Below, piece by piece: positions 39,279-50,550 of a stretch of DNA of 57,803 nt. Made by a program: the position numbers and the translations under genes. Each line of letters begins with the position of its first letter. Positions within the stretch are counted from its first letter, which is position 1. Below the pieces are notes generated by a model. It was not told the DNA's origin. It saw only the letters and a list, made by a program, of their open reading frames with translations, and made no database searches. The stretch comes from Candidatus Daviesbacteria bacterium (GTDB taxonomy: Bacteria; Patescibacteriota; Microgenomatia; Daviesbacterales; UBA10151): assembly GCA_016176415.1 (NCBI GenBank), contig JACOXH010000017.1, positions 1 to 57,803 on the forward strand. Direction: 5' to 3'.

Positions 39279-39350
39279 TGCCGGATCGTCTAACGGTAGG
39301 ACAACTGCCTTTGGAGCAGTGAATTCTAGGTTCGAATCCTAGTCCGGCAA
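39279..39350 (+). tRNA. tRNA-Gln(UUG); integration target of the downstream island
   Basis: U1:A72 acceptor TGCCGGA/TCCGGCA, anticodon stem ACTGC/GCAGT, loop CTTTGGA, T-loop TTCGAAT. Confidence 0.88.
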
Positions 39351-40856
39351 CAAGGTTGGACTCGCTGGCTGTAGGGTGGCCGGATTCGCGGCGGATGGGG
39401 GCGCCGCGAGGAGAAAATAGCCACGATTTCGGTATTCCACTTGAAGTTGTTGATTGAATAAAAAGAAGTTCGAGCCGACAGTTTTTGCTCCGATACTCAG
39501 TTCGGAGCATGTATTTTTTGCGCGCGCGATTTTTGCGCACGAAAGTGCGCTACCGATAAAGTTTTTTAGTGGTTCGAGCCATTCACTGCCTTTGTCTGAA
39601 ATTTCTTTAATTCTTTGCTGAAGTGATAGTTTTTCTTCAATTAAATAGTTCTTTTTATTTTGGTATTCTTTGGAGTCAATAACTTTGTCCAAATATCCTT
39701 CAAGCAATCTGTCCAGTTTATCTTCAGTTTCCTTAAGTTCTGTTTTTAACTTCTCGATTATTCCTTTAGATTTAAGTTTTTCTTTTTGGGCATCTTCATT
39801 TGCCCATTGCCGGAATTTTTCAGCCGCATATTCTGACATCGAGGCTTTACCAACAATTTCTTTTAATTGTATTTCAATATCATCTTTCCTTGCATACTTT
39901 TGATTACATACCCCTTTTTTCTTGGAACAGCGATAGTAAATGAAATCAACAGAGTTATTGGTTCTTGGGTAAAACCTGTGATGTTTTTCCGCAGTTATGG
40001 AGCAACCGCATTCTTTGCACTTAATTAGCCCTAAAAACTCAAATTCACTTTTTAGAGATTTATTTTTTCTGTTTCTTGCTTTAATTATTTCCTGCACAGA
40101 ATCAAATAATTTCTTGGTAATTAAAGGTTTATGTTTTCCTTCGTAAAGTTCACCATTAAATCTCATTACTCCATAGTAGAAAGGATCACCTAAAATTCTT
40201 TTCATCTTGTCTTTATGAAAAATCCTGCCTCCAAAAGTCGTATTAAATATTTTATTCTTAGTAAAGAAATTTATAATATCAACATAGGTATAACCGCCTG
40301 TTGCAAACATTTCAAAAGCTTTGGCAAGATAGGGAGCATGTCTCCTATCTACATGTATACTTTTTGTACCTGAATCATTTATGTACCCAAATGGCGCATG
40401 ATTAGGCCATTCCCCTCTTCTTAATTTTTGCCTGTTACCTCTTTTAACATTCTCGGATAAATTGTCCACATAGTATTTAGATTGACCAAAGGCTATGTTT
40501 AACATGAATTTTCCCTGCGGTGTGTTATCAAACCAAAAAGATGGAAATTTTAAATCCAAAAGTTTTCCTGTATCTAAAAGGTAAATTATTCTTCCGCCAT
40601 CAATAGAATTTCTGGCTAATCTGTCAGGATGCCACGATAAAATCCCGTTAGCTTCTCCTGCCTCCAACATCCTTATTAGTTCTGCAAATTTTTCCCTGCC
40701 CGGCTTTTTGGCAGTTTTACTTTCGGTAATGGTAGTAACTATTTCTAAATTTTCTTTTTCGGCAAACTCTTTAATCTCTGCAATTTGAGCCTCAATAGAG
40801 AGTATTTGCCTGTCCGGCTCATCTGTAGATTTTCTGCAATATGCAATGTATCTCAT
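39339..40856 (-). CDS. large serine recombinase (resolvase catalytic domain + recombinase domain + zinc ribbon + coiled coil)
   Basis: MRYIAYCRKSTDEPDRQ (catalytic Ser), ...CKECGCSITAEKHH...YYRCSKKKGVC zinc ribbon. The 3' end reads through repeat X into the tRNA-Gln 3' end, so the exact stop is uncertain. Confidence 0.9.
   Translation of the reverse strand: MRYIAYCRKSTDEPDRQILSIEAQIAEIKEFAEKENLEIVTTITESKTAKKPGREKFAELIRMLEAGEANGILSWHPDRLARNSIDGGRIIYLLDTGKLLDLKFPSFWFDNTPQGKFMLNIAFGQSKYYVDNLSENVKRGNRQKLRRGEWPNHAPFGYINDSGTKSIHVDRRHAPYLAKAFEMFATGGYTYVDIINFFTKNKIFNTTFGGRIFHKDKMKRILGDPFYYGVMRFNGELYEGKHKPLITKKLFDSVQEIIKARNRKNKSLKSEFEFLGLIKCKECGCSITAEKHHRFYPRTNNSVDFIYYRCSKKKGVCNQKYARKDDIEIQLKEIVGKASMSEYAAEKFRQWANEDAQKEKLKSKGIIEKLKTELKETEDKLDRLLEGYLDKVIDSKEYQNKKNYLIEEKLSLQQRIKEISDKGSEWLEPLKNFIGSALSCAKIARAKNTCSELSIGAKTVGSNFFLFNQQLQVEYRNRGYFLLAAPPSAANPATLQPASPTLLPD
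39348..39432. repeat. repeat X, copy 1 (85 bp), abutting tRNA-Gln
   Basis: CAACAAGGTTGGACTCGCTGGCTGTAGGGTGGCCGGATTCGCGGCGGATGGGGGCGCCGCGAGGAGAAAATAGCCACGATTTCGG; a perfect inverted match to 40954-41038. Confidence 0.9.
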
Positions 40857-40953: not shown

Positions 40954-41038
40954 CCGAAATCGTGGCTATTTTCTCCTCGCGGCGCCCCCATCCGCCGCGA
41001 ATCCGGCCACCCTACAGCCAGCGAGTCCAACCTTGTTG
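40954..41038. repeat. repeat X, copy 2 (inverted), fused to repeat Y (attP-like Y-X junction)
   Basis: Exact reverse complement of 39348-39432 by my base-by-base comparison. Preceded by a short relic of a recombinase 3' end (..FFLF..RNRGYFLL..). Confidence 0.9.
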
Positions 41039-41127
41039 GCGCTTTACAAAAAAATTCGAACGCATTTTCAATCGACGCATTGACTCGTCGCCATCCCGAC
41101 CTCCCGTTGTTTTCTACCTTAAATGTT
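41036..41127. repeat. repeat Y, copy 1 (92 bp, minus orientation)
   Basis: The reverse complement equals 49710-49801: AACATTTAAGGTAGAAAACAACGGGAGGTCGGGATGGCGACGAGTCAATGCGTCGATTGAAAATGCGTTCGAATTTTTTTGTAAAGCGCCAA. Confidence 0.9.
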
Positions 41128-41227
41128 ATTCCGATTCCGTTCCGCAAAACTGTCGGCTCGAACCCCCGCCACAGCGGGGCAAAAAACGCAAAAATTTTAA
41201 AGAACTTTTCAATTTTTAACTATTGAG

Positions 41228-45921: not shown

Positions 45922-46686
45922 TTAGGGATTTTGTTGAGCAGAATTAGAAGCAGGAGGATTATATACAGGAGCAGGGGGGTTTTCAGGAAGAGTAATATTT
46001 AAAGGATAAACTTCAGCATTTTCTATAACATAAGGAGTCCAGGTTAGATTGCCTTTGACTACTGCTTCATTGATCTTTTTTAAATTAATTAAAGAAGCTG
46101 AGGGTTTAAAGTATAGAGTATAGACAGAATTATCAGGTAAAAGCAGCTGATATTGTCCGCTGCCGGTAGTTTGTAAAATTCCCTGATGGGCTGTTTGTCT
46201 GTGCAGGATTGGTGAAGAGTATGGGAAGAAATATTCTATCCCGTTTTGTATGGGGCCGTTGGTGGTAATAAGATAAATGGCAGAAACAAGAGTCAGGAAT
46301 CTTTTGATAGTCATTTTCTTAAAATAATTAATAATATAACCTAAGATTTTTCTCCAAAATGAAGGTGCAGAAACAGTTTGAGGAGCCGGATCCTGAGGAA
46401 TATGGTCAGTAGCAAATCTCCCATGAGAATCTCTTAATTTATGTTGAGCTACTTCTGAATATGTAGCGTGATGGGGATCTTCAGGGAGGTTAGGGGTGTT
46501 CGGGGGATTTGGGGTGGGAGGAGTTGGAGGTTGAGGAATTGGTTGTTGAGGTTGTGGCGGTGAAGCATATGGATTGTTTGGGTCAGGAGGGTTTGTGTGA
46601 GGACTGAAAGTAGAACCAAAAAGTGGAGGTGGATTATTGTTGTTTCCGTTGTTTGGATTTGATGGATCATTGGGCAGATTATCCAT
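45922..46686 (-). CDS. hypothetical protein: proline-rich N-terminus, one TM helix, C-terminal globular domain
   Basis: ~100 aa of P/N/Q low complexity (PPTPPTPNPPNTPNLP), then FLTLVSAIYLITT. Confidence 0.5.
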   Translation of the reverse strand: MDNLPNDPSNPNNGNNNNPPPLFGSTFSPHTNPPDPNNPYASPPQPQQPIPQPPTPPTPNPPNTPNLPEDPHHATYSEVAQHKLRDSHGRFATDHIPQDPAPQTVSAPSFWRKILGYIINYFKKMTIKRFLTLVSAIYLITTNGPIQNGIEYFFPYSSPILHRQTAHQGILQTTGSGQYQLLLPDNSVYTLYFKPSASLINLKKINEAVVKGNLTWTPYVIENAEVYPLNITLPENPPAPVYNPPASNSAQQNP

Positions 46687-46805: not shown

Positions 46806-48299
46806 ATGAGTAGAGAACAAGATCAAGTCTCCCCTTTACCGATGGGTGATGGGCTAACGAAATCTGCTTTATCCGCCAAGGAAGTCAACTCTAAATACCA
46901 TCTTCAACATTTGGGTGTTGGATTAGATACAATCGTTGCAAAAATAAATGATTCTATCACTGCAGAGATTGTAAGCACATCTCCCCCTATTGTTTCGGAA
47001 ACTTACATGCTTAATGATCCAACGACTTTTGATGCCGTAGACAGTGAAATTAGGGATTTTGTGAGAAGGGACAATGAGCGTTCATCCTTAACAACGAAAA
47101 AGGCAATTGCAAGGGCACATCTAATAACCAAGCAATTCCGCCAAGTTGTTAGTCAATTCTATGAACAATACGCCCTAGCACAAGAAGGCCGAGCTGCAAA
47201 TGAGGCAGTAAATCATTTTCTTGGAGAAGGAGCAGTAGTTCTTCATATGGTTTTTGATACATCAATTCGATTAGGAGGCTTTTTCGAATGGAACTATTAT
47301 ATTGAAACTATTCGAAGGGCTCGGAAAAGAGATCCGGAGGAATATCCAGTTGATATAGACCCGGAAATTGCTGAAAAGAAATTAGACGGTTTAAGAGAAA
47401 AGCTTGGTGAAGCAGAAAAACAATTTCCTCAAAAAATTGCAGATGGATTGAAACAAAATAGCTACCAAGGAGTTGTGCAACTAGACTTTACAAAAGAAGG
47501 GAAAGCTTCAGAGGTCTTTCCAGTTGCTCCAGAAGTCAAGAAAAAAGTAGATGCTGAGTTTCAGGAAAGCATTTTACGCTTTGAAAAGCACACCCCAAGT
47601 GATTTCTATTTAATGGCTTCAGATTACTTCAGTAGTTTTTCCAGAAAACTTGTCGTTATAGTTGATGGATATGGCAGAAATGCAAGAGAAAATGGATTTT
47701 TGGTGGCCCAATATTTCCCTCATGCAGGATACAGAGGATTAGGACTAGTTGTAATGAGAGCCTCAAATCAAGAGTGGAATGCTGATAGTGGTTATGGTTC
47801 CATCTGGGCACCATGCCATCCTCAAAAACCAGGTAAGCTGAATCTAAATCCTAAATGGAAAGATTTTAGATTTGAAAGTGTCAGGTCTGAAACTTTTCTG
47901 AAAGCATTGGATTCTGCAATTCAAAGAGGAAAAACAGGAGAAAGAGTTTGTATTAGGGCACCGTTTGGATATGGTAAAACAACGGCTCTTATGGCGCTTA
48001 ATGATTCTTTAATTGATTCCGGGAGAGAAGATACTAAAATTGCAACGGTTGAGGAAAACGGAGCCATAAGTAACTTAACAACTAAATTTATTGCGAGAGG
48101 GAAAATAAATCGAGAAAACTTAGAGACTAGTCTTGGAAATGCAAAAACCTTAATTTTGGACGAAGCCGGTAGATTGGAGGCACAACCGGAAACAAAAGCT
48201 TTTATTACGGATTTAGAAAACTCCGGAGTTCAAGTTCTTAGGATTTATCCTGGTGACATAGAACCACCTAAAGATTTGTTGGTAATGCAGCTTCAATAG
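46806..48299 (+). CDS. hypothetical protein with a C-terminal minimal P-loop NTPase module
   Basis: Walker A FGYGKTT and Walker B LILDEAG in the last ~130 aa. The N-terminal ~360 aa is unrecognised. Confidence 0.55.
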   Translation: MSREQDQVSPLPMGDGLTKSALSAKEVNSKYHLQHLGVGLDTIVAKINDSITAEIVSTSPPIVSETYMLNDPTTFDAVDSEIRDFVRRDNERSSLTTKKAIARAHLITKQFRQVVSQFYEQYALAQEGRAANEAVNHFLGEGAVVLHMVFDTSIRLGGFFEWNYYIETIRRARKRDPEEYPVDIDPEIAEKKLDGLREKLGEAEKQFPQKIADGLKQNSYQGVVQLDFTKEGKASEVFPVAPEVKKKVDAEFQESILRFEKHTPSDFYLMASDYFSSFSRKLVVIVDGYGRNARENGFLVAQYFPHAGYRGLGLVVMRASNQEWNADSGYGSIWAPCHPQKPGKLNLNPKWKDFRFESVRSETFLKALDSAIQRGKTGERVCIRAPFGYGKTTALMALNDSLIDSGREDTKIATVEENGAISNLTTKFIARGKINRENLETSLGNAKTLILDEAGRLEAQPETKAFITDLENSGVQVLRIYPGDIEPPKDLLVMQLQ

Positions 48300-48336: not shown

Positions 48337-48945
48337 TTAAGATTGCAAGACTTTGTTTACATCATTTAATAACTGATCAAATTTTGTAAATCCGCTTTTT
48401 GTATTAAAATGTCCGGCATTTAGTACAAAATTTAATTCTATTCCCAGATTTTTTGCAAGCTTCTTGCCGTTTCCAAGGGAAACATAATTGTCATTGTCTG
48501 AATGAAAGACTGAAAAATATTGAGCATTCTTTTTTATAGATTCCCAGTCAAAGGCAAAACCACTGAATGCTTCATCCCGATCATAGTTTAAAATAGGTTT
48601 AACTCCGACAGGTGTTCCTACGAAAAAAGCAGCTTTAACAGGATGCTTTAATTGTTCCAGTACCCGCAGAGTAAAAATACCGCCTAAGCTATGTCCAATA
48701 AGAATAGTATCCTCGTTGATATACTTCTTGTAATCCTTTAAAACATCAAACCATTCGTCTATTTTTGCCGGTATCACCGGCGGTGAGGGGAATTGCGGAA
48801 CAAAGACTTTGCAGCCTTTTTCTTCCAGTTTCTGTTTTAACCACGGAAACCAGTTTTCTTCAGGATATCCTTCTGTTCCATGAAAGATAAACAAGTTTGT
48901 TGCTGGTGCAATGAAAACATTTGTTCCCGCCGGATTTTCTGTCAT
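48337..48945 (-). CDS. alpha/beta serine hydrolase (YdeN-like family)
   Basis: FIFHGTEG...GHSLGG...HSDNDNYV...AGHF pattern. Confidence 0.7.
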   Translation of the reverse strand: MTENPAGTNVFIAPATNLFIFHGTEGYPEENWFPWLKQKLEEKGCKVFVPQFPSPPVIPAKIDEWFDVLKDYKKYINEDTILIGHSLGGIFTLRVLEQLKHPVKAAFFVGTPVGVKPILNYDRDEAFSGFAFDWESIKKNAQYFSVFHSDNDNYVSLGNGKKLAKNLGIELNFVLNAGHFNTKSGFTKFDQLLNDVNKVLQS

Positions 48946-48974
48946 GCCAAAATTATAACAAAAGTAATGGACTT

Positions 48975-49440
48975 TGTTTTCCTGGCGGCTTCCGCCGCCC
49001 CCGCAAAGTCAAAGTATAAAGACCCGTCACTGAGGGCAGCACCATTAGAAGGAGTGTTTCTTTAGGAATTCAGAAAAACTAAATTGGGTGCTGCCCGAAT
49101 ATTCGCGAACCCGCCAAACGTTACTTCGGAATTTAAAAAGGGCGGGTGAGCCATCGGAAGGTGATAGCGGCATGGACACAGAACAGGGTAAAAATTGCGG
49201 CGGGGGCGAAAGCGGAATACCCCCGCAACGGCAGGCGGTTCATATACAGATTAAAAGGGAGCGAGGGTGTATGTCTTCATTATAAACAGCAGAACTATAA
49301 TCCCGCAGCGAGGTAGAGACTGTACAGACTTAATCGAAGACGAAGATATCGGAAAAGCCCCCCTTAGGGGGCTCTCTCGCCGAGCGAGCAAAGCGAGCGA
49401 CAAAGCGGGGGTGCCGCCACATCTATTTTATTGGGTGGGT
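48975..49440 (+). ncRNA. candidate large structured non-coding RNA region (unclassified; strand tentative)
   Basis: GC-rich in an AT-rich genome, with no credible ORF. Many perfect helices, e.g. GGGCAGCACC(49034)/GGTGCTGCCC(49088), ACCCGCC/GGCGGGT, GCGGGGG/CCCCCGC, GCCCCC/GGGGGC, GTCTTC/GAAGAC. Confidence 0.3.
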
Positions 49441-49465
49441 GGGATGTTGAGGATTAGAACCAAAG

Positions 49466-49576
49466 CCACAATTTACCACAACTCCACAATTTGTGGACTT
49501 TTGAAGCTAGTTACCACAATTATGGTCCACAATTATTCATTGTGGTGATTAGATTGTTACAGCAAGCCAATTGTGG
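49466..49576. repeat. iteron-like cluster: 8 copies of CCACAAT/ATTGTGG
   Basis: Direct copies at 49466, 49476 (CCACAAC), 49484, 49514 and 49527. Inverted copies at 49491, 49539 and 49569. One pair forms TCCACAATTTGTGGA. An AT-rich tract follows at 49577-49620. Confidence 0.75.
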
Positions 49577-49709
49577 TATTAAATAAATATTGTAAATATT
49601 AAAATATTGTTTGTAATTGCTTGTCCCGCCGCAGCGGGACTATAATAAAAAAAATCGCGCGCATTCTGTCTTTCTGTCTTTGCAAAAAATACTTGAAGCG
49701 GGACGGAAT

Positions 49710-49801
49710 AACATTTAAGGTAGAAAACAACGGGAGGTCGGGATGGCGACGAGTCAATGCGTCGATTGAAAATGCGTTCGAATTTTTTTGTAAAGCGCCA
49801 A
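49710..49801. repeat. repeat Y, copy 2 (plus orientation), at the right end of the island
   Basis: Exact inverted match to 41036-41127. Contains the hairpin CGACG..CGTCG and a T7 run just before the junction. Confidence 0.9.
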
Positions 49802-49821
49802 TGTAGATCGCAAGCTTTGCT

Positions 49822-49833
49822 TAGTCCGGCAAC
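49822..49833 (+). repeat. direct repeat of the tRNA-Gln 3' end (att-like)
   Basis: TAGTCCGGCAAC matches 39340-39351. The following TTT matches the flank of the third copy. Confidence 0.7.
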
Positions 49834-49965
49834 TTTGAATGAAAACCTTTTTTAAGGAGGTTTTCAGTTCAAAATTTCGGTAAGGGATTTGTAACTGCGT
49901 AGTCCCGAGTGAAGCGAGGGACAAGACTGTTCGTTATTCGAGCGATTAGCGAGAATACGGGATTA

Positions 49966-49980
49966 TCCTAGTCCGGCAAC
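49966..49980 (+). repeat. second direct repeat of the tRNA-Gln 3' end (att-like)
   Basis: TCCTAGTCCGGCAAC is identical to 39337-39351. A 146-bp remnant lies between the two repeats. Confidence 0.7.
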
Positions 49981-49989
49981 TTTTTAAAA

Positions 49990-50550
49990 ATGAAAGTATA
50001 CTTTACAGGATCTATTAAAGGTAAGTACAAATACATTGATAATTATCTTAAGATTATTGAGATTATAAAAGATAAAAAATTCTCAATAATCTCTGATCAC
50101 ATAATCAAAACTACTGAAGATCAAATCTCTCTTGAAACAAAAGAAGGTCGTTTGAGATTTAATAAAAAGCTGGAAAGTTGGATCAGCTCTTGTGATTTTA
50201 TGATTGCAGAAACCTCATTTCCCAGCATTAGTGTAGGTTATGAAATATCACTGGCCATAAGACTCGGAAAGCCTGTTTTAATCCTTTTTAGTGAAGGTCA
50301 TGCTCCATCCTTGTTTGCCCATTTTAAAAACGAAAAGCTCGTTTGTGAAAAATACTCTTTAGAAACTCTTAAAGATATTATTGATGATTTTATCAACTAT
50401 GTACAGGGGACTGAAGAAACAAGATTTACCTTTTTTATTACTCCTGAAATAGCCTTACATCTTGAAGAGATTTCTAAAAAAGAAAAACTGCCAAAGTCTG
50501 TGTATCTTCGTAAGCTGATTGAAAAAGACATTAAAGTCAGAAACAAATAA
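49990..50550 (+). CDS. DNPH1/Rcl-like (nucleoside 2-deoxyribosyltransferase-fold) domain fused to a C-terminal ribbon-helix-helix-like tail
   Basis: VYFTGSIKGK and DFMIAETSFPSISVGYEISLAIRLGKPVLILF parallel the DNPH1 motifs VYFCGSIRGG / VVAEVTQPSLGVGYELG..GKPILCLF. The tail RFTFFITPEIALHLEEISKKEKLPKSVYLRKLIEKD resembles CopG/RHH. Confidence 0.6.
   Translation: MKVYFTGSIKGKYKYIDNYLKIIEIIKDKKFSIISDHIIKTTEDQISLETKEGRLRFNKKLESWISSCDFMIAETSFPSISVGYEISLAIRLGKPVLILFSEGHAPSLFAHFKNEKLVCEKYSLETLKDIIDDFINYVQGTEETRFTFFITPEIALHLEEISKKEKLPKSVYLRKLIEKDIKVRNK

Follow-up and report, generated by a model that had tools for sequence, protein, structure and literature searches.

A predicted large structured RNA on tRNA-targeting serine-recombinase islands of Microgenomatia

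Few bacterial RNAs as large and complex as the one considered here have been described, and those with a known role are either central machines or unusual assemblies. RNase P RNA is recognized by its P4 pseudoknot and the conserved regions CR-I to CR-V and occurs as one essential copy per genome, tmRNA by its tRNA-like ends plus a tag reading frame, and group I and group II introns by models of their catalytic cores (P7/P3 core and domain V, respectively). The ROOL and GOLLD RNAs, the biochemical function of which is not known, are common on viral contigs. ROOL and GOLLD are reported to form assemblies (PMC12286853). Replication by means of ColE1 RNA II requires the transcript together with RNase H and Pol I, and is under the control of an antisense RNA. 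Hardly any work has been done on the mobile DNA, plasmids and non-coding RNAs of CPR bacteria, and we know of no RNA that belongs to a large-serine-recombinase element.

Sequence context and comparison with Rfam

The window (the whole stretch of DNA analysed, 57,803 nucleotides of a Candidatus Daviesbacteria contig) contains a gap bounded by a hydrolase gene (48337–48945, − strand) and a gene at 49990. The initial annotation had proposed a candidate large structured RNA in this gap, in a stretch that was said to be GC-rich on an AT-rich background, and had seen only junk ORFs in the gap. Both descriptions of the DNA are accurate. GC content is 0.45–0.535 over 48900–49500 compared with about 0.31–0.42 on either side, and the gap contains just short, overlapping ORFs of 44–93 aa. 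In 38 full-length homologues assembled for structure comparison no conserved reading frame was found over the RNA region, the longest stop-free stretch (median 92 aa) being itself unconserved. The complementary segments listed in support of the early proposal are also present where they had been placed. Folding of the single sequence gave z = −1.87 (+ strand) and −2.92 (− strand) relative to shuffles, which, taken alone, is not clearly better than chance. As the fold of a lone sequence is no proof of structure, the case rests on the comparison of homologues. On that comparison, the following interval is predicted to be the gene of a structured non-coding RNA of about 470 nt, representing an undescribed family.

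48983–49457, + strand: predicted structured RNA gene, starting at the first base of helix P1 and including the whole conserved 3′ tail, with blastn and covariance-model homologues over the span

A scan for a promoter or terminator of this RNA returned no convincing candidate.

Comparison of the whole window with Rfam 15 at gathering thresholds identified eight tRNAs and nothing else. At E values up to 10 the region gave chance-level matches to unrelated small families only, with no match to RF00010, Intron_gpI, Intron_gpII or group-II-D1D4, and ten diverse homologues compared with Rfam returned tRNAs only. No tmRNA was detected in the window by ARAGORN or by Rfam. That the initial annotation could not match the stretch to RNase P, tmRNA or group I/II introns agrees with Rfam 15, and none of the families suggested for comparison at the time (ROOL, GOLLD, HEARO, OLE and raiA) matches. 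A reduced RNase P RNA, suspected from the likeness of short motifs, was rejected: the canonical copy (RF00010, 100.8 bits) is located on contig C1 (G000:C1:6501-6793), and none is found here. It should be noted that this RF00010 match spans just 293 nt and scores barely above the 100-bit threshold. No description of the new RNA was found in the searched literature, and the family, being absent from there and from Rfam 15, is considered undescribed.

A three-way junction with two domains

Comparison of the homologues shows, as the predicted fold, a tight three-way junction with almost no unpaired nucleotides at the junction itself. A terminal helix joins the two ends of the RNA, and two closing stems lead into domain 1 (about 215 nt) and domain 2 (about 190 nt). 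R1 denotes a covariance model built on the 3′ 116 positions of the RNA.

48983–49419, + strand: P1, terminal helix joining the 5′ and 3′ ends, UGGCGGC (48983–48989) / GCCGCCA (49413–49419)
48990–49217, + strand: closing stem of domain 1, comprising helix X, UUCCGC (48990–48995) / GCGGAA (49212–49217), an AAA bulge, and then the C5/G5 helix (D1), CGCCCCCGC (48996–49004) / GCGGGGGCG (49200–49208)
49034–49096, + strand: hairpin H5 of domain 1, GGGCAGCACC (49034–49043) / GGUGCUGCCC (49087–49096), flanked by GA/GA
49105–49151, + strand: hairpin H6 of domain 1, GC-GA-ACCCGCC (49105–49115) / GGCGGGU-GA-GC (49141–49151)
49219–49412, + strand: closing helix of domain 2 (D2), a second C5/G5 helix, ACCCCCGC (49219–49226) / GCGGGGGU (49405–49412)
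49311–49446, + strand: 3′ part of domain 2, matched by R1 with 97.5 bits and including the hairpin GCCCCC-CUUA-GGGGGC (49357–49372)
49433–49443, + strand: G tract GGGUGGGUGGG within the unpaired 3′ tail after P1, followed by AUGUUGAGGAUUAG

The two C-strands are near-identical, as are the two G-strands, and because of this a rival nested arrangement is possible, in which the 5′ C-strand is paired with the 3′ G-strand and a central hairpin is formed. RNAalifold flips between the two-domain and the nested fold depending on the alignment. Since the MAFFT alignment A3 offsets the two sequence classes from each other by one column at the junction, an alignment-free duplex test was employed, in which the duplex energy of each sequence's own strands is compared with that of permuted partners over 2000 permutations; this test ignores phylogeny, and its internal control is the rival pairing, which uses the same strands. 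P1 scored z = −8.4, with none of the 2000 permutations reaching the observed value. Helix X (z = −4.3, 0/2000), D1 (z = −3.2, 2/2000) and D2 (z = −7.9, 0/2000) behaved similarly. The nested model was rejected, as its 5′ C-strand/3′ G-strand pairing gave z = −0.1 (922/2000 reach the observed value) and its central hairpin z = +0.9 (1596/2000). For the window sequence the calculated energy is −161.4 kcal/mol for the two-domain fold vs. −155.7 kcal/mol for the nested one.

P1 retains pairing as GGAAGCGG/CCGCUUCC, GUCGCGG/CCGCGAC, GGUGGUGGC/GCCACCACC, UCGGCGGCUGU/ACAGCCGCCGA and UCGUCGGCUGU/ACAGCCGACGA, and helix X as UUCCUUU/AAAGGAA, UGCCU/AGGCA, GUCC/GGAC and AUUCGC/GCGGAU. In D2 the first pair is A–U, G–U or G–C, and one position is found as G–C, A–U, U–A or G–U among homologues. 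The folding strand is the + strand, more stable than the − strand in 31 of the 38 homologues, and 34 G–U pairs were counted across P1, X and D2. The strands of a local hairpin proposed earlier, GGCGG-cuu-CCGCC, go to these long-range helices, and the hairpin finds no support. For GCGGGGG...CCCCCGC, the local pairing 49199/49220 shows no covariation, and it is the “alternative partner” at 48996 that is supported.

Within the domains, H5 is represented by more than ten different helix sequences among homologues (z = −12.0, 0/2000). H6 replaces ACCCGCC/GGCGGGU by GGGCCGA/UCGGCCC, GAGCCGAG/CUCGGCUC, GCCCCGU/GCGGGGC and others (z = −9.4, 0/2000), and a tandem G–A/A–G is invariant beside both stems. 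H8, a homologue-specific insert hairpin with a UYRA loop, reached z = −10.5, and H11, the variable stem of domain 2, z = −8.6. An ACAG/CUGU helix proposed in domain 2 was discarded (z = −1.0). A long-range ACCC/GGGU pairing inside domain 1, similar to P4 of RNase P, was considered; the alternatives are inseparable by eye. The 3′ hairpin was assessed in a model-based alignment of 46 sequences, where 91.7% of the cells are paired and ten of the twelve pairs have changed on both sides. Its covariation score of 0.311 compares with 0.073 for shuffled alignments (0/500 shuffles as high), and slid controls reached at most 0.096. A window-specific insert at 49406–49426 is situated within the part matched by R1.

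Covariation thereby confirms three pairings of the initial annotation, namely GGGCAGCACC/GGUGCUGCCC (49034/49087), ACCCGCC/GGCGGGU (49109/49141) and GCCCCC-cuua-GGGGGC (49357–49372). GTCTTC/GAAGAC has to be dropped, being unconserved: homologues retain CGAAGAC without a GUCUUC partner. The overall reading as a large structured RNA is supported by dozens of homologues with compensatory changes, even though some individual helices were wrong. The two readings that had been named as fatal to it, a degraded protein gene or an array of REP-like hairpins, are at odds with unconserved ORFs and covarying long-range helices.

The conserved core consists of the junction, the linker and domain 2. Domain 1 is mostly missing in L105 and L106 and filled differently in L091–L098. 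Two deletion variants were observed besides: in L009 (variant L009/L021, G005:C3) the equivalent of 49007–49219, i.e. most of domain 1, is gone, and in L034 (G070:C4) the RNA ends after GGGUAUAAAC and is fused directly to the att-proximal block.

Island setting and distribution

The RNA is situated on an island that is delimited by the following features.

39279–39351, + strand: tRNA-Gln(UUG), detected by ARAGORN and Rfam
39336–39351, + strand: left copy of the att core, ATCCTAGTCCGGCAAC, the last 16 nt of tRNA-Gln, marking the island end
39339–40856, − strand: large serine recombinase gene (ORF, 505 aa), abutting tRNA-Gln
41036–41133 and 49704–49801: left arm (beside the recombinase gene) and right arm (+ strand) of a 98-nt perfect inverted repeat
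49818–49833: degenerate copy of the att core
49965–49980, + strand: right copy of the att core, an exact direct repeat (repeat D2, distinct from helix D2) of the last 16 nt of tRNA-Gln

The island measures 10.6 kb and carries the RNA about 0.4–0.5 kb inside its right end, pointing outward, in keeping with the early description of a mobile element next to a tRNA gene. The 98-nt inverted repeat brackets cargo and RNA, and the gene at 49990 is outside the island, past the att repeat. Several further features of this DNA were observed. The recombinase gene lies between the arms of an 88-nt inverted repeat (99%; 39345–39432 and 40954–41041), the second arm of which duplicates the last 28 codons of the recombinase. 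Inside the island, 46806–48299 encodes a 497-aa orphan protein, the C-terminal part of which has a Walker A motif (FGYGKTT), and just outside, 49990–50550 encodes a 186-aa protein, the N-terminus of which resembles nucleoside 2-deoxyribosyltransferase and the tail ribbon-helix-helix proteins.

The same arrangement recurs elsewhere. The recombinase gene is upstream of the RNA and on the opposite strand in all 24 loci that have both on one contig, at a distance of 2.1–15.3 kb (median 8.5 kb). Two further contexts resemble the window in that a tRNA gene is directly adjacent to the recombinase gene or to a fragment of it. The cargo and neighbouring protein genes vary between loci; the only DNA common to the islands is the RNA and an att-proximal block downstream of it. 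The loci thus show a layout of tRNA, recombinase on the opposite strand, variable cargo, RNA and att-arm block at the island end, and from the invariable position and strand of the recombinase it follows that the RNA is a fixed part of the backbone of tRNA-targeting large-serine-recombinase islands in the class Microgenomatia (CPR). For the excised circle we infer a backbone of RNA, attP and recombinase, with the cargo between the promoter side of the recombinase and the 5′ side of the RNA. Of 401 class genomes, 229 have the recombinase family and 35 the RNA; therefore, most islands of the recombinase family do without this RNA family or carry another. Still, the two are associated, as the recombinase family is present in 32 of the 35 genomes with the RNA vs. 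197 of the 366 without (odds ratio 9.2, p = 8e-6). For the class-wide recombinase relatives up to three matches per genome were considered, many of them at contig ends.

At blastn level, relatives of the RNA were found in 11 of 60 related genomes; within the same GTDB family, 21 of 95 genomes have them, in some cases as two copies or as fragments. An exact-pattern scan with one genome per species gave 20 loci. With R1, the 35 of 401 genomes sampled across the class belong to at least twelve families, and a phylum-wide sample of 401 genomes contained one genome with an RNA match outside the class. A loose pattern scan of metagenomes yielded at least 80 loci, with at least 31 contigs confirmed by R1. 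Named records with the RNA are all Microgenomates (Daviesbacteria, Blackburnbacteria), and the label Gammaproteobacteria on several records is taken to be an error. On viral contigs, R1 confirmed none of nine pattern matches among those listed, and a phage origin was discarded, every such match being false by R1. The genome counts and the unconfirmed viral matches point to a family that appears patchy, specific to one class and not phage-borne.

Next to the RNA, outside its conserved core, is a cluster of short motifs.

49466–49590, no strand assigned: CCACAA/TTGTGG cluster, eight motifs within 300 nt

No other such cluster in the 676-kb genome is as dense, the background being 0.6 per kb, and an A/T-rich tract comes after it. 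Conservation of the cluster is limited to the closest homologues, L005 and L006; L092 and L100 have similar clusters upstream of the RNA. An assignment to DnaA boxes was rejected, as the boxes of this genome near dnaA (C16) are the classic TTATCCACA and have only CCACA in common with the cluster, which on this evidence is probably made up of sites for another protein.

Other elements around the RNA are noted for completeness. A promoter-like TTGCTT-N18-TATAAT with a GC hairpin (GTCCCGCCGCAGCGGGAC) in its spacer is found within 49614–49801 and is followed by a conserved block of about 140 nt ending in GCGTTCGAAT (tRNA T-loop-like) and T7. The block is kept behind the RNA in L059, L070, L071, L074, L075, L010, L016 and L018, overlaps an arm of the 98-nt inverted repeat, and could represent a small transcription unit or belong to an attP arm. 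A palindrome, AATCGGCCAGAATGGTGGAAATTGGCCGATT, is absent from the window and present 40–100 nt upstream of the RNA in L059, L068, L071, L027, L031, L033, L103 and L106; covariation is seen between its arms (GAGCCG/CGGCTC in L103), L068 and L106 have the centre in inverted orientation, and L090 has about seven AATCGGCCG repeats in its place. The gene divergent from the RNA often starts with M[AS]DD and encodes a Pro/Thr/Gln-rich N-terminal region (L090, L103, L104, L106, L107, L042 and L048–L050). Some of the proteins encoded by divergent genes (cluster c2) resemble, by eye, M23-type peptidases with a C-terminal DNA-binding tail. The comparable Pro-rich protein of the window (45922–46686) is encoded two genes away from the RNA.

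Possible roles and comparison with known systems

We consider it probable that the locus is a structured RNA gene and that its product acts for the element. The RNA would serve the element rather than the host. Because many host families share near-invariant junction sequences whereas their island proteins differ, the comparison suggests an action through conserved host factors instead of variable island proteins. The mechanism we favour, albeit tentatively, is that the RNA acts, by analogy with ColE1 RNA II, as a pre-primer or maintenance RNA that depends on the host and serves the excised circle. The idea stems from two observations, the lack of a Rep-like gene among the island ORFs (none noticed in a rough reading by eye) and the G-rich tract over a C-rich template at the end of the RNA. 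Host polymerase would make the RNA as a pre-primer or maintenance RNA, the G-rich 3′ tail would stay hybridized to the C-rich template, and the persistent hybrid would let the excised circle be copied or kept without a Rep gene. The RNA may even determine the replication or maintenance of a new kind of Rep-less integrative element, the minimal backbone of which would be recombinase, attP and RNA; this reading is put forward at least as tentatively. In favour of a primer, the G-tract tail is kept in 35 of the 38 homologues, each with three G-runs; against it, the complete four-run quadruplex motif is found in just 5 of the 38 tails. The CCACAA cluster beside the RNA supports an origin weakly; it is on either side of the RNA depending on the locus and unlike the DnaA boxes of the genome, which speaks against the primer. 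The elaborate conserved fold, moreover, exceeds the needs of a pre-primer and also counts against it.

About equally likely is that the RNA is “ornate”, i.e. that it works, like ROOL, GOLLD and OLE, as an assembly made of RNA alone or as a scaffold for proteins, in a role unrelated to replication such as protection, stress tolerance or counter-defence. The size of the RNA would fit, as would its many conserved motifs of tertiary type, namely the tandem G–A pairs, the UYRA tetraloop conserved on H8, the CCCCUAGGG hairpin, which is invariant, and the G-runs of the tail, through which molecules could pair with one another. ROOL and GOLLD likewise are found on mobile elements close to tRNA genes. 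Nevertheless, the RNA has no sequence or structure match to the ROOL, GOLLD or OLE families, and it is absent from viral contigs, among the matches listed, where ROOL and GOLLD are common.

A role as partner or regulator of the serine recombinase appears improbable, be it as a guide or bridge RNA, as a directionality cofactor or, by read-through across attP in the circular form, as an antisense control of the recombinase gene. Such a role would account for the strictly fixed position and orientation relative to recombinase and att block, and for transcription toward the att site and, in the circle, toward the 3′ end of the recombinase gene. On the other hand, the longest complement to tRNA-Gln, the att regions and the recombinase leader is 7–9 nt, equal to shuffled controls, and the most conserved RNA segments are identical in islands beside tRNA-Gln, tRNA-Ser and tRNA-Glu. 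Most islands of the recombinase family, moreover, are without the RNA. A guide was rejected as a candidate, complementarity being no better than chance and the G tract having no genomic partner (CCCACCCACCC is absent from the forward strand of the genome). Judged from the sequences, a guide or bridge role seems unlikely because of this chance-level complementarity, the target-invariant segments and the many islands without the RNA.

We regard it as more improbable still that the folded molecule is no RNA at all but the + strand as single-stranded DNA, which might serve as a single-strand origin or as a structure for recombination or transfer of the element. Covariation and strand asymmetry show that one strand folds, not that this strand is RNA. 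Yet the size, the three-way junction, the tandem G–A pairs and the tetraloops are typical of RNA, the helices tolerate G–T wobbles, and no rolling-circle Rep or relaxase-like ORF was noticed in the island upon reading by eye. Short ORFs and the modest z-score of the single-sequence fold might be cited for a degraded protein gene, for a set of REP-like hairpins without relation to one another or for a leader that regulates the 49990 gene in cis; these readings are already contradicted by unconserved ORFs, covarying long-range helices, neighbouring genes that vary by locus and the position of the 49990 gene beyond the att repeat, outside the island.

The family combines the size of RNase P RNA with strong covariation, a presence in about 9% of sampled Microgenomatia genomes and on dozens of metagenome contigs, and a fixed place and orientation on the very common tRNA-targeting serine-recombinase islands of CPR bacteria. 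Its role could reveal a new mode of persistence of integrative elements or a new RNA architecture. If the maintenance reading is true, no RNA-primed replicon would have been described in CPR bacteria before this one, and no large “ornate” RNA of a mobile element would previously have had a function assigned to it. With the collected sequences and the three-way-junction model, the role of the RNA can be tested directly.

Among known systems, RNase P RNA is similar in size, and short motifs of the new RNA (AAAGUC..., ACAGAAC.GGGUA) recall its conserved regions; unlike RNase P RNA, the new RNA has no RF00010 match and is found in only about 9% of class genomes. The IS110 bridge RNAs and the IscB/TnpB omega RNAs, including HEARO, likewise are structured RNAs at a fixed place near an element end. 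The genes of bridge and omega RNAs are directly next to the gene of their protein, and the RNAs contain guides that match target or donor by complementarity. Neither feature was found here: the RNA is separated from the recombinase gene by 2.1–15.3 kb with cargo genes between. The new RNA has no Rfam match to HEARO, and the recombinase of its islands, 2–15 kb away, is a large serine recombinase. ROOL and GOLLD share a length of several hundred nucleotides, many conserved helices and junctions, and a location on mobile DNA, often near tRNA genes. They differ in that the new RNA does not match their Rfam models and resides on CPR serine-recombinase islands, with no confirmed viral contig among the matches listed. 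ColE1 RNA II is unrelated in sequence, and an antisense RNA I-like partner and an origin are known for ColE1 alone; the fold of the new RNA has a terminal helix that closes it, and its conservation goes far beyond the needs of a primer. The two nevertheless resemble each other as folded transcripts of about 0.5 kb that would belong to replicons without a Rep protein and depend on host factors. In ColE1, G-rich RNA over a C-rich template helps to form a persistent hybrid near the origin, and the G-rich tail described here would be its counterpart.
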